Source: an uncultured Desulfurococcales archaeon
Lineage (GTDB): Archaea > Thermoproteota > Thermoprotei_A > Sulfolobales > WANQ01
Length of the DNA stretch: 57,413 nt
Assembly (NCBI GenBank): GCA_964448055.1
Contig: CAYUVB010000001.1
Location: 45,436 to 102,848 of the forward strand
Reading direction: 5' to 3'
Positions 20,247 through 36,813 of this stretch are shown here, in pieces. The notes below the pieces were generated by a model, which had not been told where the DNA came from, made no database searches, and was given only the letters and a program-made list of their open reading frames with translations. The translations under genes and the position numbers were made by a program. Positions within the stretch are counted from its first letter, which is position 1; every line of letters starts with the position of its first letter.

Positions 20247-20642
20247 TTGACAACTAAACTATTCTGTGAGGTATATGTGAAATGTATACTTCCAGCATTC
20301 CGTGCACTTGTAGCTAAGATCATGGTTAAAGAATATGGTTTATCTCAACTTGATGCAGCTAAAATACTCGGTGTAACCCAGGCCTCAATAAACTACTACT
20401 TGTCTGGTAAGAGAGGTCAGAAAGTATTAGCAGAACTTGAACTTATAGATGAAGTACGTAGAATCGCTAATGAAATAGCTAGAAGGCTTATAGAAGAAAG
20501 GAGGCTAGACCCTACAGATTATTTTTGTGGACTATGTATGTTATTGAAGAATAATGAATCTCTGCTTACTAGTGTGCTAAAGGTTATTGGCGTATCAAGT
20601 GTTAGGGTAAGTCCTTCCAGGATTATTAGTGCTCAACACTGA
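20247..20642 (+). CDS. HTH-type transcriptional regulator (XRE/COG2522-like)
   Basis: 131 aa with the helix-turn-helix LSQLDAAKILGVTQASINYYLSGKRG. TTG start with an ATAAAAGG TATA-like box about 30 nt upstream. Confidence 0.6.
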   Translation: MTTKLFCEVYVKCILPAFRALVAKIMVKEYGLSQLDAAKILGVTQASINYYLSGKRGQKVLAELELIDEVRRIANEIARRLIEERRLDPTDYFCGLCMLLKNNESLLTSVLKVIGVSSVRVSPSRIISAQH

Positions 20643-20795: not shown

Positions 20796-21362
20796 ATGTC
20801 TAAACATAGATTACTCATAATACTATCAGTATTGGTACCAATGTTACTTGTAACTATTGCAACAGTAGTAATTGTTGCTGGGACGAATGAATATCGTATT
20901 CCTGTAATGATTGATGGTCATTACGTTGAAGATAAAAACTTAATACATATACGTGGACTAATAGACATGAATATATATTTACCGGGATATCGTAGCTCTA
21001 TATACAGTATACAAGGTGAAGCTAATACATCAATAACCACTCTTACGGGTACCGCACAAGGTAAAGCGCTCAACCCTAAAAGTGGTGCAACAATACTAAC
21101 ATTCAGTAGTAGTTTCGTGTATGTATCAGCAACAAGTTATTGGTCTATATCCATTGCAGGCCTCCTATACATTTTAGGGATATTTGCTGGTATAGCTGGG
21201 ACAGGAGCGTTAATCTACAAAGGTAAAGACACTGAAATATACTTAGCGTTAATACCATTGATGATAGCAATAATGAGCTTTGCTTTAGCATTACTGTTAG
21301 CTAAAATGACTGGCAGTATAATGCCCATAGGTGGTAGAGGAGGCGGAAGCAGCTTAACATAA
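20796..21362 (+). CDS. membrane protein (N-terminal anchor, extracytoplasmic domain, two C-terminal TMs)
   Basis: 188-aa ORF, first gene of a tightly spaced plus-strand run. Confidence 0.5.
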   Translation: MSKHRLLIILSVLVPMLLVTIATVVIVAGTNEYRIPVMIDGHYVEDKNLIHIRGLIDMNIYLPGYRSSIYSIQGEANTSITTLTGTAQGKALNPKSGATILTFSSSFVYVSATSYWSISIAGLLYILGIFAGIAGTGALIYKGKDTEIYLALIPLMIAIMSFALALLLAKMTGSIMPIGGRGGGSSLT

Positions 21363-21363
21363 T

Positions 21364-23001
21364 ATGCTTATTAGCTTAATAGCAGAAGTTATCTGGTGGG
21401 AGTATAAGGTAATGCTTAATGCCACTAGGAGAATAGCATTAGTACTGATAATAATACTATTGTTTTCTAATATTTTGTGTTCAACTGGTATTCAAAGACA
21501 TGGCGAAGATGTAGGTTCTATACCATTAATCATAACCATAGATGATTACAAGGAAACTATTAAATCATTTTACGGCATTATAAACAATACATCAATATCA
21601 AGTAGTCTTCTAAGATTGCTAGCACTAAGTACAAGTATTACGAATAATACCTCCTTAAAGCTAACTAGCATACTACTGAACATTACTTCTAAGTTAAGAA
21701 AAATGTTATTGGAAAATCCAAATCCATTAATAAGCCGTTATGATTATACTCGCCTTGCTCTGGTTTTAAGCGTTGTAGATTACTATAATGGTTCATTAAT
21801 AGTAGATCCATTATTGTTTATAAAACTACTTAAATCTTATGAAAAAGCTCGTCAGCACTACATTCTAGAAAGCATAAGGACTAGGGATCCAGAACTAGCG
21901 ATATTAATAGAGAACTACCTTAAGCTAGCTCAATCAAATAATACGACGAGTTCGAATAAGCTGCTCGCTATTATAAGAAGTAAAGTAAAAGAATACGTGG
22001 AAAAAGGGAACCTAGATATTATCCCACTTGTAGTAGAGGTGCTAAAACAAGGTATTAGTGATATATTTATCGTTGATAGGGTAGTGTTTGCCGAATACGT
22101 AAATAATACATCAATCCTTCTAGAGAAGCAAGGCTTTATCGATATAGCTAGGAGATTACGTAGGATAGCTTCTCAACTTTATGGAGGATTTGTTGTTAAA
22201 GCTTGGAGAGATCTTAAATTACTTCAAGAAGAAGTTCTAAAACTTAACATAACGCTTACACAGGACTTAGCCTTCAAGTTAGCATCAATATTAGCAGTTA
22301 CCAGTATTACATATGATAGAATATACATAAACTTAAAGAACAAACCCGGTATCATTCAAACCATAGCTAATATCCTCATGTTGAGAGACTATACTCTTCG
22401 TAGAAAAATATATGAAACAATAATATTAGGATCTAGCCTTAAGCATTTTCCCTCCAATAAAGAGCAAACTGTTGATATAACAAGCTTTATGATTTCCCAA
22501 GTGCTTATGGAATCCAGCTCTGGTAGTCTTGAACTCCTTAGTCTAAGACAGCCATTACCAGTGAATTATCGTATAGAAGAAAATATGGTGGTTAAGCCTA
22601 TAGAGAATACAAGTACAATTCTTATAATTATAGTATCAAGCATGGGTATGCTTGCTATATTAATTCATAGTATTTTGGAAACATCTAAGCCTATACGCAA
22701 GATAGGAGAAAAGATAAGCCAAGGATACAAACCCAGTATATCATTTGAAGGCGCTAAAGCAAGAATTGTTGAAGCATATATCAAGGCTCTCTTACTATTA
22801 GAAGCTAAAGGTCATGGAAGAAAACCTTGGGAAACACCAAGGGAGCATCTTAATAGAATAAAGTCTATACCCTGCTATGAAGGGTTTAAGCGAATTGTAG
22901 AATACTATGAGGAAACCGTTTTTTCAGACCATGACATGAGGCTAAATGTAATCGATGAAGTTTACCACTACCTCAAAATGGTTGAAGAAAGTTGCGGCTA
23001 A
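21364..23001 (+). CDS. bitopic membrane protein with large sequon-rich extracytoplasmic domain and cytoplasmic DUF4129-like tail
   Basis: 545 aa with an N-terminal TM, many NxS/T sequons and a second TM (ILIIIVSSMGMLAILIHSIL). The C-terminal segment EAYIKALLLLEAKGHGRKPWETPREHL...IVEYYEETVFSDHD fits the DUF4129 pattern. Only 1 nt separates it from the upstream gene. Confidence 0.6.
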   Translation: MLISLIAEVIWWEYKVMLNATRRIALVLIIILLFSNILCSTGIQRHGEDVGSIPLIITIDDYKETIKSFYGIINNTSISSSLLRLLALSTSITNNTSLKLTSILLNITSKLRKMLLENPNPLISRYDYTRLALVLSVVDYYNGSLIVDPLLFIKLLKSYEKARQHYILESIRTRDPELAILIENYLKLAQSNNTTSSNKLLAIIRSKVKEYVEKGNLDIIPLVVEVLKQGISDIFIVDRVVFAEYVNNTSILLEKQGFIDIARRLRRIASQLYGGFVVKAWRDLKLLQEEVLKLNITLTQDLAFKLASILAVTSITYDRIYINLKNKPGIIQTIANILMLRDYTLRRKIYETIILGSSLKHFPSNKEQTVDITSFMISQVLMESSSGSLELLSLRQPLPVNYRIEENMVVKPIENTSTILIIIVSSMGMLAILIHSILETSKPIRKIGEKISQGYKPSISFEGAKARIVEAYIKALLLLEAKGHGRKPWETPREHLNRIKSIPCYEGFKRIVEYYEETVFSDHDMRLNVIDEVYHYLKMVEESCG

Positions 23002-23948
23002 CACCCTACATTATAGGATTAATAGTAATAGGTCTTATTGCAGCTCTCCTATCACCTGGAACACTTGTTGAAATAGAATATGCATTACATTATGGAATTC
23101 CCTCAATGTATAATATTGAGTGGAACGGCACGTCAATGCTTGCATCAATATTAACTAGTAATGGTTTTAAGGTAGTTGAAGCATATACTGTAGTAGACCC
23201 CATAATATTAGCCGAGGTCCATAATCCAGAAAGGATAATATATGTTTACATAGCACCGCAGTATCCATTAACCTCTAGAGATGTTAATATAGTTGAGACG
23301 TTAATGAATAAATATGCTTTAAGTTTACTGGTCTGTGATGAAGCCAATACATCCAACATTCTACTATCAAAGTATGGACTATGGGTTTCTGGAAGAATAA
23401 TTTATACAAGCTATGGATCACCTTACCCATTAGCCTACTTCAAAATAGGTAATTATAGCGGCTTATTTGTGCTAAACTATGCTTCAAGTATAGGCTATGC
23501 GGGACATGTGCGAGTAATAGGTGAAACACTTGATGGAGATATAGTAGGAGTTATGTTAAGAAAAGGAGATGACATCGTAGCGGTGATTTCTGATAGTTCT
23601 CTATTCATAAACTTAATGTTATCTAAGTCGACTTCCTACATGAACTATAGTAAACTAGTGGAAGAATTATTTAAGTACTTAACTGGAGGTTCTAGTCCCA
23701 GGAAAACACTTGTTATAATAGACTTAACTCATTATAGTGGACCTAGTCCAAGAAAAATAGCTGAAATTACAGGTAAAGGTTACGCTATTCTTCATCCACT
23801 AGTTATAGTACAATTATTATCTACGTACACTTTGTATGTAGAAGAAGTGATGGTTAGAGAATTAGTAGAAAATTATCCAATTATACTAACATATATCTTC
23901 ATTACGCTCTTATCGCTTCTTGTAATCTACAATATACTTAGACCTTAA
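22992..23948 (+). CDS. DUF4350-like membrane-anchored protein
   Basis: 318 aa with a TTG start overlapping the upstream gene by 10 nt. It has N- and C-terminal TMs and a periplasmic-type alpha/beta domain (NGTSMLASILTSNGFKVVEAY). The DUF4350 call rests on architecture and neighbours. Confidence 0.5.
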   Translation: MRLTPYIIGLIVIGLIAALLSPGTLVEIEYALHYGIPSMYNIEWNGTSMLASILTSNGFKVVEAYTVVDPIILAEVHNPERIIYVYIAPQYPLTSRDVNIVETLMNKYALSLLVCDEANTSNILLSKYGLWVSGRIIYTSYGSPYPLAYFKIGNYSGLFVLNYASSIGYAGHVRVIGETLDGDIVGVMLRKGDDIVAVISDSSLFINLMLSKSTSYMNYSKLVEELFKYLTGGSSPRKTLVIIDLTHYSGPSPRKIAEITGKGYAILHPLVIVQLLSTYTLYVEEVMVRELVENYPIILTYIFITLLSLLVIYNILRP

Positions 23949-24678
23949 GCTTAGCTAGTGCCTCAAATACTATTCTCGAAGCTTTCTCAACTCTAGGTGC
24001 AAGCTCCTTAGCGCCAGCGAAACCACTTGGTTCAACTAAGCTATCACTTACTATGAGCATTGCTGCAGCTTTAAATCCGCGCATAAGGCCTAGTGCAAAT
24101 AATGTAGCACATTCCATTTCAACACAAATTACTCCCCTACTACCCCAGCGCTTAGCGAAATCTGGGTCTTCAGCATAGAAGGCATCGCTACTAAACACTG
24201 GTCCTATGTATATTTTCTCACCTTGTTTCTCAGCTTCCTCTACGAGTAGTTTAGTGAGTTCAAAATCTGGAACAGCAGCCATACTTCCATCCGGTACATA
24301 CATACCAAGAGTAGCACCGCCATGAGGATATGCCGCACCAGTTGCAACAATAAAATCACCTATCTTCAATCCCTTAACCATTGCACCACATGTACCAAGT
24401 CTTATCATAGCTTTTGCTCCAAGCATGAAGAGTTCTTCGAAAACTATTGCAGCTGATGGTGCACCTATGCCATGAGTTGCAACGGTTATTGGTACACCCT
24501 TATATTCTCCCGTATATACTAGGAATCCACGGTTCTCGTTAACTAACCGTGGATTATCTAAGAACTCTACTAATTGTTTTACTCTTGCAGGATCACCAGC
24601 AACAACTACACGTTCAGCTATATCTCCTTTTTTAGCCTTTATATGAACTGGTTCATGAAACACCATAACTAGAACCAC
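23938..24678 (-). CDS. purine/uridine nucleoside phosphorylase, PNP/UDP family 1 (DeoD/MTAP-I type)
   Basis: VVVAGDPARV, GVPITVATHGIGAPSAAIVFEEL, IRLGTCGA and CVEMECATLF are typical family motifs. The true start may be the ATG at 24666. Confidence 0.85.
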   Translation of the reverse strand: MVLVMVFHEPVHIKAKKGDIAERVVVAGDPARVKQLVEFLDNPRLVNENRGFLVYTGEYKGVPITVATHGIGAPSAAIVFEELFMLGAKAMIRLGTCGAMVKGLKIGDFIVATGAAYPHGGATLGMYVPDGSMAAVPDFELTKLLVEEAEKQGEKIYIGPVFSSDAFYAEDPDFAKRWGSRGVICVEMECATLFALGLMRGFKAAAMLIVSDSLVEPSGFAGAKELAPRVEKASRIVFEALAKLKV

Positions 24679-24814
24679 CTCCTCTACAATTTTATCTGTC
24701 CTTCATAAATTAATATATCCTAGTATCTAAGTCTATCCCGAGTAAAGTTTGTAGATATAGTTAATACATAATACTCCTGGTATGATTAACATATGCTAAT
24801 CTGGAGGAAGTAAT

Positions 24815-26089
24815 TTGAATAGAAGTAAGATAGCATACTTTATTCATAAATTTGTGGTAAAAGTATTTGGGCTCACTAATTATGTATTATCAATGAAGCT
24901 TACATTAACTTTAAGTTTAACCCTATTATTTATTCCACTAGCTATAGTCTTTGCTAATAGGGATGTCTACCCGTTTATAGCTGCTTTGCAAATACCTTTA
25001 CTTCTTCTTCCACTTATTATCAAGAATACAATAGATAATACTACTATTTCGGTTACAAGGATAGTGCATAGGGGTGTGGAGAGACATGGAGCAAAAGCTA
25101 GGATTATATTACGTAATAGCTCAAATAATATTGTAAAGATAAGTGTAGAGGAAAGAATTACGGACAAAGTAATTATTAAGCCCAGCAAGCTTGAAGCTCT
25201 TATTGGACCATATGAGGAATCCACCGTAGAATACAACATATATGCTCCGATAGGCAAACATATTCTTAAGCCATCAACCATAGTAGTATATGATCAGATA
25301 GGTCTCATGGGCAAAGAGATAGAGGCAGAAATACTAGGCGACAATGAGGTAAGAATTAAGCCCGAAATAGCTGAGGCAGAAATTCCTAGAGGATCACTAG
25401 TAGTATATCCTGTCATAGGTGAAGGTTTTAGGAGTAGATTACGTGGAGTAGGCTTTGATTTTCAAGGCCTTAGGGAATACACTTATGGTGATCCCGTTAA
25501 ACTAATTGACTGGAAAACTAGTGCTAAATTACAAAAACTTTACATCAAGGAATATGCTATAGAATCAGGTATTCTATTAATACTAGGTCTTATGGTAGAC
25601 GTGGAGGATTTTCAAGGTAAACCTTCAAACTACGAGTTGTTTGCCAGGAGTATTTCCACGATATCATATTACTTACTACTTCGTGGAGCAAGTATTGGTT
25701 TAGCAATAGTATCGCCAGGTAACCTAATAACAGTGCCACCAGGACGTGGACTAAAATACATTGATAGTATACTTAACGCCTTCTCAGAAGTACCCTGGAT
25801 TAAGGATTCAGTTGATATAGCAGGATTCTTTTCCGGGATAACTAAGATGACATTACATCATACTAGGCCGAGAACTCTATTAATATTTGGCGAAGGCTCT
25901 AGGAAATACACTCAAGTAATAGTAGAGAATGTAAGAAAAAGTAGATTGCTCGGACTAAGTGATATCCGTGTAGCAGTATTAAATAATGATAAAATAACAG
26001 GGATGCTTACTAGACTAGGATTTCATGCAGGATCTATAAGTTCTCCTGATGATCTATATGAGTTGCTAAAGTTAGCGGTGATTATGTGA
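24815..26089 (+). CDS. DUF58 domain protein (vWA-like, MoxR-associated family)
   Basis: DUF58 signature LREYTYGDPVKLIDWKTSAKLQKLYIKEY and two N-terminal TMs. The ATG at 24893 (MKLTLTL...) is a likelier start than the TTG at 24815. Confidence 0.7.
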   Translation: MNRSKIAYFIHKFVVKVFGLTNYVLSMKLTLTLSLTLLFIPLAIVFANRDVYPFIAALQIPLLLLPLIIKNTIDNTTISVTRIVHRGVERHGAKARIILRNSSNNIVKISVEERITDKVIIKPSKLEALIGPYEESTVEYNIYAPIGKHILKPSTIVVYDQIGLMGKEIEAEILGDNEVRIKPEIAEAEIPRGSLVVYPVIGEGFRSRLRGVGFDFQGLREYTYGDPVKLIDWKTSAKLQKLYIKEYAIESGILLILGLMVDVEDFQGKPSNYELFARSISTISYYLLLRGASIGLAIVSPGNLITVPPGRGLKYIDSILNAFSEVPWIKDSVDIAGFFSGITKMTLHHTRPRTLLIFGEGSRKYTQVIVENVRKSRLLGLSDIRVAVLNNDKITGMLTRLGFHAGSISSPDDLYELLKLAVIM

Positions 26090-27078
26090 GGTATGTTATC
26101 TTAAAGTTAAGTAGGATAGCGTATCCTTTAATAATGGCCATGGGCGTTTATATAGCTTTAGCTTCTTCTAGGCTTACTCCTTCACCATTACTATTTATTA
26201 TAACTACTACTATAAGTTTAGCACTGGTTCTTGAATCTATTCGTATAGCACTTTTAGATGAAATAGGTCTAGGTGATGTAGGTCTACTAATATTATCAGC
26301 TAACATATTAGGCTTCATAGGTCTACTTGATGAAGTACTAACACTTATGTATTCTTTAGCAATACTATTGGTGTTAATTGATGGATCTAAGGTTTTGTTT
26401 ACTAGAAATGTGTTTAATTTCTTAAAAAGCAATAAGCTGTTAATAATGTTTATGTTAATGTACTTAATTATGGTTTTTGTTATTATCCATTTAGATATTT
26501 TAGCAGTATTAGCTGGCATGCTTGGACTAGAGAGTGTTAGGAGTTTCATAACCTTACTTTTGGCATCTAAGTCTTCATATATGCTTTTGGGTGTACTTAT
26601 AGGGTTGGCATTGGTAGTAATAGCAAATACGGTAATAGTACGTAAGTCAATCAAGGAGTCATTGCATGAGCTAGAACTTAGCTTAGAAAACGAACTGTAT
26701 AGTACAAGTATTGGGCAAGTAATTGTAGTTGAGTTTATGTTGATATTAATAGCATTTATTATTTATCCATTAGTAATCTATTCATTGATGTTGGTGCGGT
26801 TACCTAGTGGCCTACCTTACATAATGGGTGTAATTATATCCTTTATTGTATGGGTTATCCTACGTAAAGCAGTTTATGGGTTAATATCATTAAGTATAGG
26901 TGGGGAAAGCAGAAAGTTAAAGGTGTTATGGGTTACTGTAGGTTGCATTGTATCAATCTATATTATTGTATCTGAGGTTCTCGGCTATGATCTAAGCATA
27001 TTTAATGAAGTATACAAGGGTATAACTAGGTTAGAAATTAAGTCTATAAAATTATTAATAGAATTACTATGGGGTTGA
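26086..27078 (+). CDS. polytopic membrane protein
   Basis: 330 aa with about 8 TMs. The GTG start overlaps the DUF58 stop by 4 nt. Confidence 0.5.
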   Translation: MRYVILKLSRIAYPLIMAMGVYIALASSRLTPSPLLFIITTTISLALVLESIRIALLDEIGLGDVGLLILSANILGFIGLLDEVLTLMYSLAILLVLIDGSKVLFTRNVFNFLKSNKLLIMFMLMYLIMVFVIIHLDILAVLAGMLGLESVRSFITLLLASKSSYMLLGVLIGLALVVIANTVIVRKSIKESLHELELSLENELYSTSIGQVIVVEFMLILIAFIIYPLVIYSLMLVRLPSGLPYIMGVIISFIVWVILRKAVYGLISLSIGGESRKLKVLWVTVGCIVSIYIIVSEVLGYDLSIFNEVYKGITRLEIKSIKLLIELLWG

Positions 27079-27082
27079 CGAT

Positions 27083-27292
27083 TTGGTTAATGGGTCGGCT
27101 AGGATTCCATTAGTACTAGGCATATTCTTGATACTTGTCTCTCTATACTTTTTCTCGATGGGAGTAACACTTGTGTCTAATGGAGATGTTGCTAGTGGTT
27201 TATTGGCTGCTTTAATAGGCTTTGCCTTACTTGCTACTAGTATTACATTAATAAAACTATGGGGTTTAATGAAGATTAAAGGTAAGGAGTAG
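27083..27292 (+). CDS. small two-TM membrane protein
   Basis: 69-aa hydrophobic ORF with a TTG start, directly after the polytopic protein. Confidence 0.3.
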   Translation: MVNGSARIPLVLGIFLILVSLYFFSMGVTLVSNGDVASGLLAALIGFALLATSITLIKLWGLMKIKGKE

Positions 27293-29437
27293 TTACCTGA
27301 TCTTTGCTCTGATCACTATGATTATAGCTGTAATTATGACTCCTAGTACCAGTCCTAGGAGTAGTCCTAGTATTAAGTTATTTAGTGTGGTTGTGGTTAC
27401 AGGTATTGTTATTGTTTTTTCTGCAGTATGTGTTTCAGTTACAGTTACTGTAGCAGTTTTCTCCTTAGTTTCAGTAGTTGTAATAGCTGTTGTCGTTACT
27501 GTTGTTGCTGTAGTAGTCTTTGTTATGTTTTTCTCAATAGTATGTGTTATGTTTACATAACTTGTTCTTGTTACTGTAACTGTTACAGTTTCTCTATGGA
27601 TAATAGTGACTGTTGGTAAGGCTGTTATTGTTATACCTACTTGAGGTTTAGGTATACTTGCCTCTACAAGCGCTTTTAGCACTTGCGCATGTAGTGAAGC
27701 TAGCATGTAGTAATATATTGTAGTAGCCCAGTCTTCTTCTATACCTTTATGCGCTTCAGCCAGCTCCATATAATTCAATGCTATTAGCGGTATTGCTCCT
27801 ACATCGAATGCATCTCTTATAGAGGCCTTGGTTTCCTTCTCAACTACTTGAATTATACCTCCTATACCTGTTTTAAATAATTCATGTATAGCTACAACAC
27901 TAGAGGCTACAGCATGTATTGATGCAGCTATGCTACCATAGGTGTCATTGTTTGAGAAGGCTTTCATAGCTAAATCAACATTCATTAGAGCCTCGTCATA
28001 GCTTGAAGGCTTACTGCCAATATCTGATACCAGTGTTTCAAGATAGCTAAAGCTACTTTTAGCCATAGCTAGTAGGCTTTCAGCTATATCTTTAACAGCT
28101 TGTGAGTTTATCATAGACGTGCTTACTCTTGACATTAATAACCATTGTTTAGCGCTATCGGCCCTGGCCTTTGCAAAAGCTAACATATATATTAGTTTAT
28201 CTAGATCACTCCAGCTGGTAACTTTCTTAAGCATATTTATTGACTCATTAAATATTAGTTCAGATAAGTAATAACGGTATCTTGCAGCCAGCAGTGCTTC
28301 AAACTCTGAGAATGTTTCAGCTTTACTAGCCATTACTATGTAGCGTGTAGCTATTATAGTGTTATTTACCTCATTCACAAACTCAGCTAACCTACTATCA
28401 TCGAGATACACTTTAGCATACTCAAGTGCAGTCAACCCCTCAATATAGCTTGTAAATGCATAGCTAGCAGCCTCATAGTACATTTTTGATAATAAGGAAG
28501 ATGATGCTTGTTCCGCATAATTCAAGGATTCATTTATATGTCTTTCAATTATATATCTCACAGGGTATGGTATCTTCTTAGCCAGTTCAAGTGCTTGTTT
28601 CCTAGCATCTTCGCTTCTAGTGAGATAGCTATGTGTCCAGCTAATGACTATGTTAACGGCTTCGCTGGGAAGTTGTGGTAGAGTTATACCACTTGGTAAG
28701 CTTATGTTCATTCCAGTAAAATAGTAAAATGCTTCACGAACGCTTGCAACCTCTACAACTGTAACATTTAATTGTTTTCCAAGCTCTACCACATCTACTG
28801 GTACATATTCTGTTCTAACAAGATATCCTCCGGGTATAGGTTCTCTTACAATCTTTCTAACGTATACTACTCTCTGCCCTATAGGTATGAGGAATACCTT
28901 TGTACCAACTTCTGCAGCAGCTTTAAGCTTAGCAGGAATACCTCCTACGGGTCCTATACTTCCATCGGGACATATCATGCCTGTCATCATTACGTCTGGT
29001 CTAAGGGTCTTATTTAGGAACAAACTTAGTAGTGCGATAGTCATTGCTCCTCCTGCACTAGGACCACCTATTATGAGACTACTGCTCTTCATCCTTATGA
29101 AATAGTCATAGCTATTGAAGCTCTTGCCTGCAATGGTAGCTGCTATTAGAGCGGCTATCCTAGCAGTGGCTTGGGTATCAAGTTCTGTCAATGGTTCTGC
29201 GCTGAAGTATACAATACCATTACCTGGATAAGCTATTGATACATAAAGATCCGCAACAACTCCTCCTTCCTCTTCGCCCCCTATAGTTGTAACAGCTGGA
29301 ACTTTAATGTGTGTACTCTTTATCCATATATAGGATGTACTTGTCTCTGTAACTGCTATGACAGTTAATAATGGTGATACCATAGAGATTAATAGAATAA
29401 TAGCAATAAGCGACTTATATGCCGAAGCCAATATCAT
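27293..29437 (-). CDS. surface-anchored Lon-like (S16) serine protease with helical domain, Thr-rich stalk and C-terminal TM anchor
   Basis: 714 aa with an N-terminal signal/anchor. The Lon proteolytic motif is LIIGGPSAGGAM (Ser127), with GGIPAKLKAAAEVG (Lys170) following. The Ser-Lys spacing of 43 residues equals that of E. coli Lon S679/K722. The C-terminal part is a T/V-rich stretch plus the TM LILGLLLGLVLGVIITAIIIVI. Confidence 0.75.
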   Translation of the reverse strand: MILASAYKSLIAIILLISMVSPLLTVIAVTETSTSYIWIKSTHIKVPAVTTIGGEEEGGVVADLYVSIAYPGNGIVYFSAEPLTELDTQATARIAALIAATIAGKSFNSYDYFIRMKSSSLIIGGPSAGGAMTIALLSLFLNKTLRPDVMMTGMICPDGSIGPVGGIPAKLKAAAEVGTKVFLIPIGQRVVYVRKIVREPIPGGYLVRTEYVPVDVVELGKQLNVTVVEVASVREAFYYFTGMNISLPSGITLPQLPSEAVNIVISWTHSYLTRSEDARKQALELAKKIPYPVRYIIERHINESLNYAEQASSSLLSKMYYEAASYAFTSYIEGLTALEYAKVYLDDSRLAEFVNEVNNTIIATRYIVMASKAETFSEFEALLAARYRYYLSELIFNESINMLKKVTSWSDLDKLIYMLAFAKARADSAKQWLLMSRVSTSMINSQAVKDIAESLLAMAKSSFSYLETLVSDIGSKPSSYDEALMNVDLAMKAFSNNDTYGSIAASIHAVASSVVAIHELFKTGIGGIIQVVEKETKASIRDAFDVGAIPLIALNYMELAEAHKGIEEDWATTIYYYMLASLHAQVLKALVEASIPKPQVGITITALPTVTIIHRETVTVTVTRTSYVNITHTIEKNITKTTTATTVTTTAITTTETKEKTATVTVTETHTAEKTITIPVTTTTLNNLILGLLLGLVLGVIITAIIIVIRAKIR
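27370..27600. repeat. low-complexity GTT/ACT-rich coding repeat (encodes the Thr/Val-rich stalk)
   Basis: Imperfect reiteration of GTTACTGTT/ACAGTTAC-type units. The opposite strand yields spurious V/C-rich ORFs. Confidence 0.7.
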
Positions 29438-29596
29438 TCACCTGTACCCGGTTAGCAAGTTGTTTAGACCTGGATCAGAGTTATGTAATAGCATATTAAA
29501 ACCTCATCGGATATTATCGGATATTGGAAGACAAATATTAAAAACCATTGTTAATTAAGTTTCGTATGAGACTACGATAGCGAGTGATATAGTTAG

Positions 29597-30337
29597 GTGT
29601 TAATAGTGATGGATTTGTTCTCAATTATACTGGTAATCACAGTTATACTATATGTTGTGCTACTAATTATGATTTCAGAGTACATTCGTTCCAGGAAGGG
29701 GTTATCATCTTACTTTACTAGGAGAATAATCCACCTCTTAGCAGGGGACTCCATTGTAGTTTTACCTTTATTCAAGCATGTAGTGTATCCCGTAGTAATT
29801 ACAATAATACTTGCGTTAATGGTTTTTATAGGTCTTAGTAGACCTGGTAATCCCTTCTCAAAGACCATGGTTGTAACAGAATATGATAAATTACATGTAT
29901 ATGGTCCTTTGTATTACATATTAGCTATAATGATCTTGGTAATATTGTTCTATAATCACCCTGAGATAGTCATAGCATCAACCATGATAATGGCCTGGGG
30001 TGATGGTTTTGCATCATTAGTACCCAAATATATTAGTAATCCTCATATGATATTCAATAGTGGCGTGAGATATCGTAAAAGCATTGAAGGTACACTAAGT
30101 ATGATTATAATGGGATTTCTTGGAGCAATTGTAGGCTTGTTTCTGAGCAATATTTTAACAGGTTACAGCTTCAACATAGTAGGTTTGATACCTATCGTAT
30201 TGATTGCAAGTATTGTATCTGGTATAGTGGAAATGCTGAGTGTTGGACCACTGGCTAGCTTTGACAACCTAACTGTACCTATGGCATCAACTGTAACAAT
30301 ACTCTTATTAGAGCATATGCTCCCAAGCATTACTTAA
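29597..30337 (+). CDS. CTP-dependent polyprenol (dolichol/phytol) kinase family membrane protein
   Basis: 246 aa and polytopic. RRIIHLLAGD, AWGDGFASLV and RKSIEGTLSM resemble the COG0170 Sec59/VTE5 family. Confidence 0.65.
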   Translation: MLIVMDLFSIILVITVILYVVLLIMISEYIRSRKGLSSYFTRRIIHLLAGDSIVVLPLFKHVVYPVVITIILALMVFIGLSRPGNPFSKTMVVTEYDKLHVYGPLYYILAIMILVILFYNHPEIVIASTMIMAWGDGFASLVPKYISNPHMIFNSGVRYRKSIEGTLSMIIMGFLGAIVGLFLSNILTGYSFNIVGLIPIVLIASIVSGIVEMLSVGPLASFDNLTVPMASTVTILLLEHMLPSIT

Positions 30338-30452
30338 ATAATATTACTTTATAGAAGCCTTAATACCTTCTAAGATGATATAGTTTAAATAGGTGTGTCA
30401 AGGGGAGTCCAGGTAAAGTAATCTAGAAGTCCTTAATGCAAGGGGCTACCCA

Positions 30453-31283
30453 TTGGCTATACTGTTGATAGTTGACTATGTACTTAGAGTACTAGTGGTA
30501 CTACTGTTCGGTATAATATCTTTAAAGAAAAAACTTGTTGATATTACTGGTTTCATTGCCGGACTATTTGTGGGCTTATCTGTTATTCTCCTAGGTGGCT
30601 GGAACTGGTTTATCATTATATTATTATTCCATTTAGTAGCAGGCATTGCTACTAAATGGAAATACGAATATAAGAGAAGTCTTGGTGTGGCAGAAGAAAA
30701 AGGTGGTGCAAGAAGTTGGAAGAACGTATTAGCAAATGGCATTATTGCATCAATAGCGGTTATGCTTGAATACATGGTTGGTGGACAAATATGGGCTTAT
30801 GCATACCTTGCTGCTGTTGCAACAGCTATGGGTGATACCCTTGCTACCGAGATAGGATTACTGAGCCCTAGTAAGCCTAAGTTAATAGTTAAGCCTTGGA
30901 TAGAGGTAGAACCTGGTACCTCAGGTGGTGTAAGTCTTCTTGGATATATTGCGTCGGCATTAGCAGGCTTAATAGTAGGGCTTATAGGCTGCATGCTTGG
31001 CGTTGTACCTTCCACAGAAGTACCCAGTCCCAACCCACTATACCTTATAGGGGTAATAACCCTAGCCACACTTATCGGTGTAACAATTGATAGTATAATT
31101 GGTGCAACAATTCAAGCACAGTATCGTTGTACCGTATGCGGCAAGCTTACAGAAAGACCCGTACACTGTGGAAAACAAGCTATATTAATTAAAGGTGTAC
31201 GATGGGTAGATAACCATGTAGTGAATATACTAGGTATAGCTAGCGGTGCACTATCAGCCATGATAATAGTATTACTAACATAA
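30453..31283 (+). CDS. DUF92/TMEM19 (COG1836, VTE6-like) membrane protein with C-terminal Cys/His knuckle
   Basis: GGARSWKNVLANG, ATAMGDTLATEIG and GTSGGVSLLG are DUF92-type motifs. An inserted segment CTVCGKLTERPVHCG is present. TTG start. Confidence 0.65.
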   Translation: MAILLIVDYVLRVLVVLLFGIISLKKKLVDITGFIAGLFVGLSVILLGGWNWFIIILLFHLVAGIATKWKYEYKRSLGVAEEKGGARSWKNVLANGIIASIAVMLEYMVGGQIWAYAYLAAVATAMGDTLATEIGLLSPSKPKLIVKPWIEVEPGTSGGVSLLGYIASALAGLIVGLIGCMLGVVPSTEVPSPNPLYLIGVITLATLIGVTIDSIIGATIQAQYRCTVCGKLTERPVHCGKQAILIKGVRWVDNHVVNILGIASGALSAMIIVLLT

Positions 31284-31319
31284 ACATAAATATAGAATAG
31301 ATAAAATGGCTAGGATATT

Positions 31320-31634
31320 TTAGGTATATTGGGCTGTTCTCTCACTAGCTCTAAGCTGTGCTACTATTTCATCAAGACCTAATCCACTATTCACTAGTTC
31401 AACTACACGGCTACGTTCATCTACACCTAATTTACGGTTTAATAATCTCTCAACCTCATCTATTAATAGTAATGGTATGTATTGATCTAATACTTTCTCT
31501 AATAACTTTGGTATTGCTTGTGATAGGTTCGCTACAGCTTGTGATAAATCACGTATGGTCTTAACGATATCATCGCCTTCATCTGCTTGTGAATGTTTGT
31601 CTAGGTTTATTTGCTTCCTTTCATCCTCTATCAA
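31320..31634 (-). CDS. hypothetical small helical protein
   Basis: 104-aa ORF with no motif recognised. Confidence 0.4.
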   Translation of the reverse strand: MIEDERKQINLDKHSQADEGDDIVKTIRDLSQAVANLSQAIPKLLEKVLDQYIPLLLIDEVERLLNRKLGVDERSRVVELVNSGLGLDEIVAQLRASERTAQYT

Positions 31635-31755
31635 GAATTTAACACCCAGTTAAGTATAGTATACAATATCTTGTCTCTAAAACGTCTCCACCTGATAACA
31701 CTCTAAAAATAATATTATAGCTAAAGACTATGTAGTAGTTAGTAGGGACTGAGAC

Positions 31756-32625
31756 GTGGTTTCAAGAGTATCAATGTGTCTATTAGTACTAGTGTTTATC
31801 CTACTATTTACATTAGCGTATTATATGCCTTATTATAGTGGTGGGTTTGGCAAAATAGCGTATGAGCATCCTGTGGTAGTTGAGAAACCTAAACCCTTGT
31901 TCACATCAGTGTCACGTAAAACAAATATATACATTCCATTAGTGAACAATACTAGTAGTATGGGTGTTAAGGAGAATGTGAGTGGGTTCTGGAAAAACCT
32001 ACGTGATGTATGGTGGATTAAGGCTTTAACACAAGTATTCTTATCAATTATGTCAATTATATCGTCCATTATAAAGTTCCTTATAGATTTAACGATAATT
32101 GATATACCTAGACCTAGCGTTCATGAAGTAAGTGGTGAAGTTAATACAACTGTATTGGTGAATCCTCGAAGACTATTGATGGTAGGTGTATTAGGCTTAA
32201 TATCAGCTGTTATTGTATTAGCTATTATAGCTAGGTCTAGGTTGAAGAAATACGATATGACAGGTTACTTCTTAAGTAAAAGGTTTGAAGAGTACTCTTC
32301 CGAGGAGCTTGTAGATAAAGCTCGGTATAATATTAGCTTACTAGATCTTAAAGAAAAGGACATTAGCAAAATAATACTACATGCTTTTAGCCGTGTATAT
32401 TCATGGGGTAAGGAGTTACTCGGGATAGGAGAATCTATTACACCTCGTGAACTTGCATACCTATATGACGTTAAAGGTCTTAGTGATAAAGTATGGGTTA
32501 TTTCATCTGCATTTGAGGAACTAAAATATGGAAAACGTATTCCCTCATGGGTCAATGTTAATGATATCCTTGGCGCTCTACGTGATGTCGAGGTGAAGAT
32601 TAGGGAATGGTCTTCGAAGAAATAG
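31756..32625 (+). CDS. bitopic membrane protein with cytoplasmic DUF4129-like tail
   Basis: 289 aa with two TMs. The C-terminal ILHAFSRVYSWGKELLGIGESITPRELAYLYD...AFEELKYGKR fits the DUF4129 pattern. GTG start. Confidence 0.5.
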   Translation: MVSRVSMCLLVLVFILLFTLAYYMPYYSGGFGKIAYEHPVVVEKPKPLFTSVSRKTNIYIPLVNNTSSMGVKENVSGFWKNLRDVWWIKALTQVFLSIMSIISSIIKFLIDLTIIDIPRPSVHEVSGEVNTTVLVNPRRLLMVGVLGLISAVIVLAIIARSRLKKYDMTGYFLSKRFEEYSSEELVDKARYNISLLDLKEKDISKIILHAFSRVYSWGKELLGIGESITPRELAYLYDVKGLSDKVWVISSAFEELKYGKRIPSWVNVNDILGALRDVEVKIREWSSKK

Positions 32626-33128
32626 TCCTCCTACTTTTACCTATAGGTATTGTTTCAACAGTGCTAGCCTACTATTACTATACTAAAATAGCCAGTTATT
32701 GTTGCTTATCTTTTGGTGTATTAGAAGATAGTAGAAGAGAAGAGGTGTTAAAACCTCCTCGTTGGAGTAATGTTTTGGCTTCGAGAATAGAATTCATTGA
32801 TGAGACTGTATTGGATATACTACGTAGTATGATAAGGAGAACAGAGTCACGTTCCACCACATTATTGGGGATACATGTTTTTCCACATGGTGTAGGTTCT
32901 CTTCAATTATTGAGATTATATATTGGATCGTTCATAAGGTTGTGGAGACGTGTAGGCTTTTTCAATTCGGTTACTTTCTACTTAAAGACTATTAAGGTAA
33001 GAATGCTCTATAGTAAAGTTTTAAGACTTCATAGGTCTAACAAGCTTCATGGGTATAGACTCATTGCTTCAAGGTTGTTTAATGAAATAATTGAGTTGAA
33101 CAAGATCATTGAGGCGTATAGTAGTTGA
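32607..33128 (+). CDS. N-terminally anchored basic protein, function unknown
   Basis: 173 aa. It overlaps the upstream gene by 19 nt and the moxR start by 4 nt. Confidence 0.4.
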   Translation: MVFEEIVLLLLPIGIVSTVLAYYYYTKIASYCCLSFGVLEDSRREEVLKPPRWSNVLASRIEFIDETVLDILRSMIRRTESRSTTLLGIHVFPHGVGSLQLLRLYIGSFIRLWRRVGFFNSVTFYLKTIKVRMLYSKVLRLHRSNKLHGYRLIASRLFNEIIELNKIIEAYSS

Positions 33129-34099
33129 ATCCACGTGATGTATACATAATTGCTGAGAAAGTGAGGAGACAGGTTTCAAGAGTTATTGTGGGTAAAGAGG
33201 ATGTTGTTGATCGACTATTAATAGCATTACTTGTCGGAGGACACGTATTGTTAGAAGGTGTTCCAGGTGTTGCTAAGACGTACCTAGCTAGATCCTTTGC
33301 AAAAACTCTAGGATTGAAGTTTAAAAGAATTCAGCTCACGCCAGATCTACTACCAAGCGATATAATTGGTGTTAAGGTATACAATTATAAGACAATGGAG
33401 TTTGAATTTAGGCCTGGACCAGTATTCACTAATATATTATTAGCTGATGAAATAAACCGTACACCTCCTAGAACTCAAGCAGCGTTACTCGAGGCAATGC
33501 AGGAGAAACAGGTAACTGTTGATGGTGAAACCTATAAATTACCTGAACCATTTGTTGTAATAGCTACTCAAAATCCTGTTGAAACAGAAGGTACTTACCC
33601 GTTACCTGAAGCACAACTTGATCGATTTTTGTTTAGAGTAATAGTAAATTACCCCTCAAGGAATGAAGAAGTTGAGATGCTTAGGATTAAGAGGGTTAAA
33701 GGTGAAGTAATAGACGTGGACCAGATAGCTGGTCCTAAAGAAGTGTTAGAGGCTTCAAAGACTGTTGCCGAGAAAGTTAAGGTCGATGATGCTATACTTG
33801 AATACATAGTTGATCTCGTAAGAGCTACACGTGAACATCCATCAGTACTTTTGGGTGGTAGCCCTAGAGCCGAGGTAATGCTTCTTTATGCTTCAAGAGC
33901 TTATGCAGCTATTAGTGAGGGTAGAGATTACGTGGTTCCTGATGATGTGAAAGCGGTTTTCTTTGATGTAATGAACCATAGGATTATACTAAGACCGGAA
34001 TATGTTATAGGCACGTATAGTCGTGAACCTTTATGGAGTTACCGTGCAATACATGGTATACTTAGCTCAGTAGTAGAGAAGGTTAGGGTCCCCAAGTAA
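33125..34099 (+). CDS. moxR: MoxR-family AAA+ ATPase
   Basis: Walker A LLEGVPGVAKT, Walker B ILLADEINR and VIATQNPVETEGTYPLPEAQLDRF. 324 aa is the typical MoxR length. Confidence 0.92.
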   Translation: MNPRDVYIIAEKVRRQVSRVIVGKEDVVDRLLIALLVGGHVLLEGVPGVAKTYLARSFAKTLGLKFKRIQLTPDLLPSDIIGVKVYNYKTMEFEFRPGPVFTNILLADEINRTPPRTQAALLEAMQEKQVTVDGETYKLPEPFVVIATQNPVETEGTYPLPEAQLDRFLFRVIVNYPSRNEEVEMLRIKRVKGEVIDVDQIAGPKEVLEASKTVAEKVKVDDAILEYIVDLVRATREHPSVLLGGSPRAEVMLLYASRAYAAISEGRDYVVPDDVKAVFFDVMNHRIILRPEYVIGTYSREPLWSYRAIHGILSSVVEKVRVPK

Positions 34100-35409
34100 T
34101 GGTTTTATTAACTTCTAAAGCACAAATACTAATTATTGTGTCACTCCTAACATTACCATTAGGGTTACTAACTCTTAGAATGGAAGTAATACTATTTTCA
34201 CTAATAATCCTTATATCTATCGCACTAGATGTAATTTACTTTACACATAGTATTAGAGAAGTTGAAGTTAATGCTTGGAGAGATAGGATCCCAGAAAGAG
34301 TTATAGTTGACTCGATAATACCTGTTAAAGTCTATGTGAAGATCAAGGGTTTCCGAGGAATAGTTAGTGTTCATGACCATGTACCTGATGTTTTCCAAAT
34401 TACTGAAGGCAGAACAAGCTTGTATACAAGAGTACATGAGAACCAAGTTATCAAGTTAGAATATGTATTCAAAGCCGTTGTCCGCGGAGATCATAGAATT
34501 GGGCCCCTAACGGTAATACTACATAGTCCTCTAGGCCTGGTAGGTAAACGTATAGACTTACCTAAGAACACTATCAATTACATTAAAGTAGTTCCACAAT
34601 TCTATGCGTATAGGTTTAAGACTAGAGAGACTATTGCTAGGTACATTATGCCTCCTGGTGGACATCCAGTTAGGATGCGTGGTCTAGGTGTAGATCTCGA
34701 ATACATACGTAACTATCTACCAGGTGATGATGTTAGGAAAATTGCCTGGAAGGTTTCAGCTAAGAACCCTAGAAGAGAACTTATGGTTAAGGAGACTAGT
34801 AGTGAGGTAAGATTAAGCTTATTTATAGTACTAGATGCCGGAATAGAATCAAGCTTAGGTTATCCTCGTAGGCTTATAGACTACTATGTTGAAGCTGCAG
34901 GGTCTTTGATTCTTGCTGCTCTTGATCATGGTGATCTCGTAGGGTTATATATCTCAGGTACGCCGAGTCTCCTAGTACCATTAACAAGGAGGAAAGAGTA
35001 CTTATACATGGCCCTCAAGTTCCTTGAAACACTTAACCCTAGCAATACTAGATCAATACTTCATCGAGTACCTAGTGTACTAGCATCAGCTTTACCAAGA
35101 AGGTCTATAGTCTTCTACTTTTCAAGCCTTGAGAACATTATCGATGTAAAAGGCATAGCTGAGAAGACTAGAGCCTTAGGGCATAAACCAGTCTTCATGA
35201 TACCCTATACACCATCCTTTATAAGAATAAGCGTAGATAAATTACCATTAAAATACTTCTATAATAAGGTGCTTATCGATGAAATTAACAGGTTAAAACA
35301 AGTAGTTAATGAACTGGTAGCTGCTGAAGCTGAAGTAGTAATACTTAAACCCGTAGATTTTGTCTCCAAGGTTCTAAAAATCTATTATTCACTAAGGGAG
35401 CTTGCATGA
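34099..35409 (+). CDS. DUF58 domain protein (vWA-like, MoxR partner)
   Basis: TAATG overlap with moxR. Two N-terminal TMs and the signature IRNYLPGDDVRKIAWKVSAKNPRRELMVKE. Confidence 0.8.
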   Translation: MVLLTSKAQILIIVSLLTLPLGLLTLRMEVILFSLIILISIALDVIYFTHSIREVEVNAWRDRIPERVIVDSIIPVKVYVKIKGFRGIVSVHDHVPDVFQITEGRTSLYTRVHENQVIKLEYVFKAVVRGDHRIGPLTVILHSPLGLVGKRIDLPKNTINYIKVVPQFYAYRFKTRETIARYIMPPGGHPVRMRGLGVDLEYIRNYLPGDDVRKIAWKVSAKNPRRELMVKETSSEVRLSLFIVLDAGIESSLGYPRRLIDYYVEAAGSLILAALDHGDLVGLYISGTPSLLVPLTRRKEYLYMALKFLETLNPSNTRSILHRVPSVLASALPRRSIVFYFSSLENIIDVKGIAEKTRALGHKPVFMIPYTPSFIRISVDKLPLKYFYNKVLIDEINRLKQVVNELVAAEAEVVILKPVDFVSKVLKIYYSLRELA

Positions 35410-36146
35410 AGGCTAGCATAATCTCAATCCTTAGAATAATTACCGTAAGCCCAGTGTTCATTTTATGGTTATACAGTATCTTGGAAGTCTCTAGTGAGAT
35501 ATATGGTTTATATCATGTTATAACCGGTATATTCATAATCGTACTAGCTTGGTATTTAAGGAAACATAACTACGTTGACTACCCAGTATTCTTTCTATTT
35601 GCGTTTTTATTCTTTGGTTTAATAGCTCAGCTAGGTGTAGGTTTCTGGATAGAATCTCTATTTCTTATACTGCCAGGTTTTCATGTCATCGTGGCTTTAG
35701 ATACAAAGAAATTTCATCACCTAATAGCATTATTAACTTTGACTTATATCTACACGATTCTACAAGCATATCTCGTAGATATAGGTCTATCATATAAGGC
35801 TGGCCTAGCAGCGATACCAGCATTCTTTTCTTCAATACGTGTAGTACTCTATGGTGGGATACCAGAGATTATGTTCTACGAGCCTGTGCCAGGGTTAATA
35901 ATAATATACGCCTTAGCTACAATATCATTAATACTATTAATGATTCATGAGGAGAACATTATAGAAGCAGGCCCCAAGGTAATATTGGACTCTATGAAGA
36001 TACTCATAATTTCTTCGTTGATAGCATTCTCAATTGTTGCAGTATCAGTTGTTGTTCAAGGATCATTAATAGTATTCTGGACAATTACTATACTATCAAT
36101 ATCAGTGTTAGCAATAATAGCTTATAGAAAATTAGCTAAAGCATGA
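35406..36146 (+). CDS. polytopic membrane protein
   Basis: 246 aa with about 7 TMs. ATGA overlap with the DUF58 gene. Confidence 0.55.
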   Translation: MKASIISILRIITVSPVFILWLYSILEVSSEIYGLYHVITGIFIIVLAWYLRKHNYVDYPVFFLFAFLFFGLIAQLGVGFWIESLFLILPGFHVIVALDTKKFHHLIALLTLTYIYTILQAYLVDIGLSYKAGLAAIPAFFSSIRVVLYGGIPEIMFYEPVPGLIIIYALATISLILLMIHEENIIEAGPKVILDSMKILIISSLIAFSIVAVSVVVQGSLIVFWTITILSISVLAIIAYRKLAKA

Positions 36147-36465: not shown

Positions 36466-36813
36466 TTGGGAAATACCATGGGTAAGGTTAGATCGGCGCC
36501 TATAGTAGTTTTAGTCACAACACCTAATAGAGAGGTTGCTGAGAGGATAGCTAGAAGACTAGTAGAAGCTAGATTAGCAGCATGTATAAACATTGTTGAC
36601 GGTATTAAAAGTACGTATTGGTGGAAGGGTAAAATTGAGGAAGATAATGAGGTTCTAATGATAATAAAGACCAGGTTAGATCTATTTAATGAACTAGTAG
36701 AAGAAGTGAAGAAGAACCATGTTTATGAGGTCCCAGAAGTAATAGCTTTGCCTATAATCATCGGATATCGTGATTACATTGATTGGTTAGAGGAAGAAAC
36801 CAAGAGTCAGTAA
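36466..36813 (+). CDS. cutA: divalent-cation tolerance protein CutA
   Basis: VVLVTTPNREVAERIARRLVEARLAACINIV...STYWWKGKIEEDNEVLMIIKT...YEVPEVIALPI. The ATG at 36478 is the probable start. Confidence 0.85.
   Translation: MGNTMGKVRSAPIVVLVTTPNREVAERIARRLVEARLAACINIVDGIKSTYWWKGKIEEDNEVLMIIKTRLDLFNELVEEVKKNHVYEVPEVIALPIIIGYRDYIDWLEEETKSQ

Follow-up and report, generated by a model that had tools for sequence, protein, structure and literature searches.

We analysed a window of 57,413 nucleotides (nt) from the genome of an uncultured Desulfurococcales archaeon (contig CAYUVB010000001.1, positions 45,436 to 102,848 of the forward strand), an AT-rich stretch with a GC content of ~37%. Our subject is the region 20796-36146 of this window, where a MoxR-type AAA+ ATPase, two DUF58 proteins, an ATPase-less Lon-like protease and two candidate kinases of prenol metabolism are encoded. 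The original prediction had joined these genes into one undescribed system, in which the MoxR acts through two sets of DUF58/DUF4129 membrane adaptors on a glycosylated surface complex that includes the protease. Sixteen open reading frames (ORFs) lie between 20796 and 36146 (Table 1); all the ORFs proposed there are present and are matched by independent gene calls on the source contig. The window matches a metagenome contig of hot-spring type, ENA ERZ27248349. Pfam confirmed the two DUF58 proteins, the single MoxR, the single S16 protease and the DUF92 protein. Labels such as L001-L091 and P0160 denote loci and proteins of our comparison set.

Table 1. Genes of the region, with positions in the window. 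TM, transmembrane segment; aa, amino acids; E, E value of the family match.
Gene	Position	Strand	Product and features
A	20796..21362	+	188-aa membrane protein: N-terminal TM, ~80-aa ectodomain, two C-terminal TMs; first gene of module 1
B	21364..23001	+	545-aa bitopic protein; ~370-aa ectodomain, sequon-rich; cytoplasmic DUF4129 tail (predicted); TMs ~19-45, 415-440
C	22992..23948	+	318 aa, DUF4350-like (arCOG01314-type); signal/anchor helix 1-29, ectodomain, C-terminal TM 291-317
D	23938..24678	-	Purine/uridine nucleoside phosphorylase (PNP); PNP_UDP_1 E 8e-48; housekeeping, splits module 1
E	24815..26089	+	DUF58a, 424 aa; DUF58 E 8.5e-10; N-terminal TM hairpin 24-73, Ig-like/vWA-like body predicted cytoplasmic
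F	26086..27078	+	330-aa polytopic membrane protein, multiple TMs, last large gene of module 1; no Pfam match
s69	27083..27292	+	69 aa, two-TM ORF after F; stop codon abuts stop of convergent protease gene
G	27293..29437	-	ATPase-less Lon-like S16 protease, predicted surface-exposed; Lon_C E 1.4e-12
H	29597..30337	+	246-aa polytopic protein; no Pfam or NCBIfam match
I	30453..31283	+	DUF92 E 1.4e-67; TIGR00297 E 1e-44, below cut-off
X	31320..31634	-	104 aa, acidic, soluble; no Pfam match; outside both modules
J	31756..32625	+	289-aa membrane protein, first gene of module 3; small sequon-bearing ectodomain, predicted cytoplasmic DUF4129-like tail
K	32607..33128	+	173 aa, single TM, basic domain predicted cytoplasmic; no Pfam match; module 3-specific
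L	33125..34099	+	MoxR-type AAA+ ATPase, cytoplasmic; AAA_3 E 2.3e-67, AAA_lid_2 E 1.2e-17
M	34099..35409	+	DUF58b, 436 aa; DUF58 E 1.9e-16; N-terminal TM hairpin, vWA-like body predicted cytoplasmic; no sequons
N	35406..36146	+	246-aa polytopic membrane protein, last gene of module 3; conserved in L082, L084, L085, L090

The genes of the region fall into seven or more transcription units distributed over the two strands, among them that of the unrelated PNP gene, an arrangement that does not fit a single super-locus. On the plus strand, A, B and C are packed into one unit (a 1-nt gap between A and B, a 10-nt overlap of B and C), E, F and s69 into another (a 4-nt overlap, then a 4-nt gap), and J, K, L, M and N into a five-gene unit with successive overlaps of 19, 4, 1 and 4 nt; H and I are spaced by 115 nt. 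The minus strand carries PNP (D), whose 3' end overlaps the 3' end of C by 11 nt (23938-23948), the protease gene G, which lies tail to tail with s69 with a gap of 0, and X, alone between I and J. We refer to A-B-C-[PNP]-E-F-s69 as module 1 and to J-K-MoxR-DUF58b-N as module 3; L is the only MoxR gene in the window. No family match was found in Pfam, NCBIfam or PADLOC for A, F, K, N, X and s69, and none in Pfam or NCBIfam for J, K, H, A, F, N and X even at E values up to 10. ARAGORN and Rfam gave no RNA genes in the window, and a search for TATA-like boxes and T-runs yielded little of use, the exception being one box at -23 upstream of A.

Gene order in related genomes separates module 3 from the rest of the region. 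We scanned species-representative genomes for the protease and obtained 80 other loci, with flanks of up to 10 kb that add up to 964 kb; at 34 of the loci the flanks reach 5 kb or more on either side. The flanks were searched by single sequence and by iterated profile. MoxR was found near the protease at none of the 80 other archaeal loci within these flanks, and DUF58, DUF4350 or DUF4129 near it at L003 only. As a gauge of sensitivity, a 50%-identical second MoxR in L085 was recovered at E 1e-93. L082, whose protease is 75% identical, keeps the complete layout of the window. The order A-B-C-PNP-E-F-s-Lon-H-I-X-CutA is also retained in L083, L088 and L089 (protease ~56% identical), with nothing between X and CutA, where the window has the five genes of module 3. 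Only five homologues of J occur in our protein collection. The same five-gene operon, with similar gene lengths, is carried by L084, L085 and L090 (the contig of L091 ends early), where it follows a gene for an Fe-dependent repressor and precedes an overlapping gene for a PMT_2 GT-C glycosyltransferase; neither the protease nor DUF92 nor module 1 lies within 10 kb of it there. Identity between the window and this clade is 83% for MoxR, 52% for DUF58b and 34% for J. Judged by gene order, module 3 is an autonomous block, because the same five genes stand in another context in L084, L085 and L090 and are missing at the site in L083, L088 and L089.

Module 1 and the protease stay together in one part of the protease family. 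In L003 and L086, B, C, E and F are contiguous, without PNP and MoxR, and convergent with the protease; in L086 the protease and DUF92 are separated by an aminoacyl-tRNA synthetase gene, and the remaining flanking genes are all unlike those of the window. A neighbour-joining tree of 81 protease sequences places L003 as sister to the window clade, and the next outgroups are without module 1 beside the protease. The adjacency can be explained by one ancestral arrangement, because it is confined to one clade in this tree, and as a sign of functional coupling it would be weak evidence. A scan of metagenomes with the DUF4350 alignment gave two loci, both of the L003 lineage. DUF92, found also at 16 Archaeoglobi-type loci in which the two genes are convergent, is the sole family seen to adjoin the protease across lineages. 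We read the region as a juxtaposition of four separately inherited units (module 3, module 1, the protease and the H-I pair) and not as one machine, with a probability of roughly 0.6. The proximity of modules 1 and 3 is most likely a chance neighbourhood in one lineage.

The two modules had been described as paralogous sets, and pairwise alignment upheld this for some of their parts. E and M share 28% identity over 203 aa (E 9e-15), and by sequence the two DUF58 genes are real, ancient paralogues. The DUF58 protein of L086 is 32% identical to E and 22% to M; on that comparison DUF58a and DUF58b had split before the window and L003 clades diverged. In an alignment of DUF58 sequences, the core motif R.Y..GD...I.WK.SA is common to DUF58a and the MoxR-linked DUF58b, and the canonical DxSxS of the metal-ion-dependent adhesion site (MIDAS) is absent in both subfamilies, the position being unconserved in DUF58a and reading D-A-G-I-E-S-S in M. 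The DUF4129 tail is probably a second common part. That of B matches DUF4129 (PF13559) directly in Pfam, at E 4.5e-6 and 27.1 bits, above the cut-off of 24.8 (residues 471-526). The J of the window has no direct Pfam match to DUF4129, and BLASTP of B against J gave nothing; DUF4129 is matched by five of the six J-family members (best E 3.8e-5), and in hhalign the profiles of the J and B families (E 7e-4, probability 26%) aligned colinearly over the last TM and the tail. With moderate confidence we regard J as DUF4129-tailed, so that of the two bitopic proteins originally given such tails B stands on its own match and J on that of its family. Sequence and profile comparison detected no relationship between the polytopic proteins F and N or between K and C, and A and s69 have no counterpart in module 3. 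By these alignments the common components of the modules are two, DUF58 and probably the DUF4129 tail, and not the whole set.

Module 3 combines MoxR and DUF58 in one operon, without a DUF4350 protein. MoxR (L) has a Walker A motif, GVPGVAKT, at residue 45 and a Walker B motif read off the sequence, ILLADE. The DUF58b gene starts at the last base of the MoxR gene, an adjacency that is the same in L082, L084, L085 and L090, and K lies between J and MoxR in the same four loci. Canonical vWA proteins of the BatA/BatB kind were not seen downstream, as neither N nor F nor the other neighbours had a vWA match in Pfam. The tail motif of J, TPRE...EELKYG, is kept in an alignment of J and its five relatives. 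Conservation in J is highest in a hydrophobic segment at ~88-118 (window 32020-32110; I..FIKFLIDLTII.IP.P), between the ectodomain and the last TM, and lower in the DUF4129 tail. With an even number of TMs, this segment would have to be re-entrant or interfacial. K has an invariant YCC just past its single TM helix and an invariant PPxWS..LAS (PPRWS..LAS in the window), the remainder being basic; the two adjacent cysteines may serve for lipidation or metal binding.

In L084, L085 and L090, a gene for a 583-aa PMT/PMT_2 (GT-C) protein shares 4 nt with the end of N (L084:14349-16100, L085:14364-16115 and L090:12888-14639) and is probably the sixth gene of the operon there. No PMT_2 homologue was found in the window. 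This link of the MoxR operon in the sister clade would fit a role at the surface or in glycoconjugates, and is a lead toward a surface-glycoconjugate client.

Module 1 has a DUF4350 protein and lacks MoxR in all genomes seen (the window, L082, L083, L088, L089, L003 and L086). Its DUF58a gene belongs to the module and MoxR does not, the sole MoxR of the window being 9 kb off in another operon; in L003 and L086, too, the module is without MoxR. The assignment of C to DUF4350 held with a reservation, as the match (E 4.9e-5, 24.1 bits) covers 168 of the 181 model positions and falls below the gathering score of 30.4; the orthologue in L003 matches at E 8e-7. Orthologues of B occur in L003, L082, L083 and L086. 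A is specific to the window clade, with orthologues upstream of B in L082, L083, L088 and L089 and none in L003 and L086. A homologue of F in L086 is 30.6% identical over 121 aa (E 7e-5), and genes of 69-84 aa are called at the site of s69 in five related contigs (L001, L082, L083, L088 and L089). PNP is not between C and E in L003 and L086. Its site is the one that MoxR would take in what we assume to be the canonical order, DUF4129-DUF4350-MoxR-DUF58. No region ORF had a Pfam match to S-layer-like Ig proteins (arCOG02884, COG4743/pfam07760).

We inferred topologies from hydropathy and flanking charges. For B they suggest an N-in protein with an ectodomain of 370 residues and a DUF4129 tail in the cytoplasm. 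The DUF58 bodies (E and M) are probably cytoplasmic, and so probably on the same side as MoxR, because the N-terminal two-helix hairpin has basic flanks (N-in) and there is no sequon excess. Sequon counts agree with these topologies. The ectodomain of B has 11 sequons where 3.4 are expected (0 of 5,000 shuffles reach 11), the protease has 7 where 2.6 are expected (P=0.009) and the ectodomain of J has 4 where 1.1 are expected (P=0.013), and no excess was found in the DUF58 bodies, MoxR or PNP. The proposal of sequon-rich and Thr-rich ectodomains is confirmed by these counts and by the linker of G (below); that nearly every product is membrane-bound or extracytoplasmic was an overstatement, since PNP, MoxR and X are soluble and the bulk of DUF58 is predicted to be cytoplasmic.

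The protease, G, is a 714-aa ORF (the deposited gene call begins 2 codons later). Ser127 and Lys170, a Ser-Lys dyad, are invariant across 20 homologues. An AlphaFold (AF2) model, with a mean predicted local distance difference test score (pLDDT) of 81.8, runs from a signal/anchor helix through a Lon proteolytic domain (38-241) and an all-alpha domain (258-593) to a disordered linker (599-688) with 40% Thr and a C-terminal TM. Foldseek aligned the model with the P domain of E. coli Lon at a TM-score of 0.77-0.81 (3wu3, 1rr9). G has no AAA+ module: the protease domain alone matches, and the rest is the all-alpha domain, the Thr-rich stalk and the TM. Its match to NF041438 SepM (E 9.6e-9) is below cut-off. 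The family is archaea-specific and widespread in archaea (Desulfurococcales, Korarchaeota, Archaeoglobi, Methanomethylicia and Methanoperedens). Like the extracytoplasmic S16 peptidases of the SepM/YlbL type and archaeal Lon proteolytic domains, G has the Lon_C fold and the Ser-Lys dyad without AAA+, and is predicted to be membrane-anchored on the outer side of the cell; unlike them, it has no PDZ domain, and its all-alpha domain of ~340 aa is combined with a Thr-rich stalk and an anchor at the C terminus.

H and I had both been proposed as kinases, and the DUF92 match of I (Table 1) supports this for I; for H the evidence is remote. H and 11 close relatives had no Pfam match, and neither single-sequence nor profile searches of PDB sequences with H gave anything. 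A profile of the H family found 3060 relatives, and among the matches listed many are ~500 aa long (about 480-530). The three of these scanned with Pfam, P0160, P0162 and P0165, are fusions of an H-like N-terminal half and a DUF92 C-terminal half, a Rosetta-stone link between DUF92 and the H-type family, for which there is no Pfam model. Two distant relatives of H, P0161 and P0289, match CTP_transf_1 (PF01148) below cut-off (5.7e-4 and 1.7e-3), and two H homologues are named 'phytol kinase' by JGI. The best fold matches of an H model (pLDDT 84.3) are to the CDP-DAG synthase CdsA (4q2g/4q2e; E 0.06, TM-score 0.35), and are not significant. H is probably a CTP-dependent prenol (phytol/dolichol-type) kinase, a putative assignment from remote evidence, and I, which we take to belong to the VTE6/TMEM19 family, a probable, predicted prenyl-phosphate kinase. 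Because H-like/DUF92 fusions exist, a shared pathway for H and I is likely.

In plants, VTE5 is a phytol kinase and VTE6, a DUF92 protein, a phytyl-phosphate kinase; geranylgeraniol kinase and geranylgeranyl-phosphate kinase activities have been reported in Sulfolobus. As neighbours and as fusions, the H-like domain and DUF92 fit such a two-step salvage from prenol to prenyl diphosphate, although H is too diverged for Pfam, and nothing ties the pair specifically to dolichyl phosphate or glycosylation. The resemblance to VTE5/VTE6 suggests a role in prenol salvage rather than a dolichyl-phosphate supply specific to the locus; of the dedicated supply first proposed for these kinases we found no mark. 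At the 16 Archaeoglobi-type loci (L021, L023, L024, L028, L030, L031, L035, L037, L046, L049, L052, L055, L066, L072, L075 and L081) the protease gene is followed tail to tail, often with an overlap, by an ORF of 385-490 aa that has DUF92 in its C-terminal half where scanned. We considered an H-like nature for the N-terminal extension (160-200 residues) of these DUF92 ORFs, for which BLASTP gave no support.

The system is not undescribed, a combination close to that of the region having been predicted in 2015. In neighbourhoods of arCOG01314 (DUF4350), a MoxR ATPase (COG0714) and an Ig-vWA protein occur along with membrane proteins that vary, and a putative archaeal system for secretion or membrane remodelling was predicted, with DUF4350, MoxR and Ig-vWA as its core (Makarova, Galperin & Koonin 2015, Biochimie, PMC5898192). 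That system, likewise known from comparative genomics alone, shares with the region a DUF4350 protein with a signal and a C-terminal TM, a MoxR, a DUF58-type protein and small membrane proteins. Most DUF4350 operons elsewhere include MoxR (PMC5898192), whereas here the DUF4350 operon is without MoxR and the MoxR operon without DUF4350; the S-layer-like Ig proteins (arCOG02884, COG4743) are missing here, DUF4129-tailed bitopic proteins are prominent, and the vWA bodies, secreted in the 2015 proposal, are predicted to be cytoplasmic. Adjacency to DUF58 marks the MoxR-proper (MRP) subfamily (PMC12067865). As in MRP operons (mycobacterial moxR1 and Bifidobacterium PFNA; PMC12067865, PMC8430577), MoxR is immediately followed by DUF58, with membrane proteins downstream. 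Unlike those operons, the window has no canonical vWA (BatA/BatB-type), TPR, FN3, kinase or transglutaminase genes, and module 3 is archaeal, with lineage-specific partners J, K and N. The Bacteroides Bat operon is presumably a further MoxR-DUF58 operon of this type. NorQ/NorD, RavA/ViaA and CbbQ/CbbO (PMC9976466, PMC13036017, PMC10585395) likewise pair an AAA+ MoxR with a vWA-fold adaptor, and their proposed principle is that the vWA protein engages the hexamer and a specific client is remodelled; plugging of the MoxR hexamer by the VWA domain has been proposed, from NorQ/NorD, as general for MoxR/VWA pairs (PMC9976466). Unlike in these pairs, DUF58 is here membrane-tethered with a degenerate MIDAS, and no metal-enzyme gene lies nearby.

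Under the reading of the region as four separately inherited units, module 3 would be a complete, self-contained MRP/DUF58-type operon. A cytoplasmic MoxR hexamer would dock on the vWA-like body of DUF58b, which the two-helix hairpin would keep at the inner face of the membrane, and ATP-driven remodelling would be relayed to a membrane platform to which J would contribute its DUF4129 tail and K its basic domain, together with the polytopic N. Such a platform may assemble or mature a membrane or surface client. Module 1 would be an ancient MoxR-less paralogue of the arCOG01314 (DUF4350) type with large glycosylated ectodomains (B and C), and may borrow MoxR in trans. G would be an independent, glycosylated, membrane-anchored surface protease, widespread in archaea, and H and I a two-step prenol and prenyl-phosphate kinase salvage pair.

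Several points weigh against this reading. We know of no experimental datum for any DUF4129 protein. DUF58 function likewise has none (PMC12067865). The MIDAS is degenerate in both DUF58 copies, so a NorD-like mode may not apply, and Makarova et al. regard as secreted the Ig-vWA protein (PMC5898192) that we place in the cytoplasm. Two lineages that otherwise have wholly different flanks keep module 1, the protease and DUF92 near one another, which may reflect functional coupling, and DUF92 adjoins the protease in the 16 Archaeoglobi-type loci as well. The absence of module 3 from the sister genomes, moreover, applies to this site, the part of those genomes that was covered.

Among the alternatives, the one we weigh most seriously, while holding it unlikely, makes both modules parts of a novel archaeal secretion apparatus, with the DUF4350 protein as a GldG-like outer component and the Ig-vWA proteins secreted, as proposed in PMC5898192 (section 3.2 and Table 2). 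The signal/anchor helix and C-terminal TM predicted for C and the ectodomains of B, C and J would suit it, but the DUF58 bodies are probably cytoplasmic by their N-in hairpin, basic flanks and lack of sequon excess, module 3 has no DUF4350 protein, Pfam found no S-layer-like or COG4743/pfam07760 component among the region ORFs, and a translocon-like pore was not identified. Slightly less probable again is that module 1 works without any MoxR, as a structural membrane complex, degenerate or re-purposed, with a function unrelated to that of module 3. No module 1 seen in any genome has a MoxR, the MIDAS position is unconserved in the DUF58a subfamily and the two DUF58 subfamilies parted before the window and L003 clades did; against this, DUF58a retains the core motif of the MoxR-linked DUF58b, and DUF4350 operons elsewhere mostly include MoxR (PMC5898192).

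The integrated 15-kb system, in which a single MoxR serves two DUF58/DUF4129 adaptors and a glycosylated surface complex including the protease while the kinases feed the lipid carrier, we consider improbable to a further degree. It would account for two DUF58/DUF4129 sets beside one MoxR in the window, for the complete layout in L082, for the neighbourhood of module 1, the protease and DUF92 amid unrelated flanks in L086, for the sequon-rich ectodomains and for the PMT_2 GT-C gene joined to module 3 in L084, L085 and L090. Yet module 3 is missing at the site in L083, L088 and L089 and occurs without the other parts in L084, L085 and L090, MoxR is at none of the 80 protease loci, the adjacency of module 1 and protease is limited to one clade, PNP and aminoacyl-tRNA synthetase genes are inserted among the parts, and F and N are unrelated. 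We give little credence to a narrower coupling in which module 1 would be a transmembrane relay from an in-trans MoxR to the convergent surface protease, so that ATP inside the cell would control a protease that uses none; we keep it in view because module 1, the protease and DUF92 stay neighbours in two lineages and the window has one MoxR. Hardly credible, finally, is a biological-conflict or defence system akin to the MoxR-vWA ternary systems. MoxR has a weak secondary match to PF20030 bpMoxR (E 5e-13), and module 3 is polymorphic in presence and absence among sister genomes, but the AAA_3 match is far stronger (2e-67), PADLOC matches none of the module proteins, beta-propeller or effector domains were not found, and the MoxR is 83% conserved between clades, unlike fast-evolving defence genes.

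Clusters of MoxR, DUF58, DUF4129 and DUF4350 are among the most widespread prokaryotic neighbourhoods of uncharacterised function. The locus offers a natural dissection into two minimal cores, an operon of MoxR, DUF58 and DUF4129 and an operon of DUF4129, DUF4350 and DUF58, and the split raises the question of a DUF58 adaptor that works with a MoxR encoded elsewhere. Current views are not overturned: the "super-locus" is mostly a product of neighbourhood, and the two leads, the split of the cores and the link to PMT_2, are useful but unsurprising.

Some observations concern genes around the region and the module 3 loci. An orphan second MoxR, ~50% identical to L and with no adjacent DUF58, is found in L085 (2491-3453, minus strand) and L091 (2424-3398, minus strand); it is divergent from a cluster that encodes an S8 subtilisin of 1200 aa and two uncharacterised proteins (~211 and ~325 aa), a few kb ahead of the MoxR/DUF58 operon. 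X is kept at the same position in L082, L083, L088 and L089. Downstream of the region lie CutA1 (36466-36813) and FeoB (37161-39314, minus strand), followed by an ORF (39370-40080) that resembles the Fe-dependent repressor of L084 at 34% identity; such a repressor is directly upstream of J in L084, L085 and L090. On the other side, 154 nt upstream of A, a 131-aa ORF (20247-20642, plus strand) has a helix-turn-helix-like segment and is a possible regulator of module 1. A 130-aa equivalent adjoins A in L082, and in L083 a PAPS-reductase gene stands in between (HTH_3, faint).

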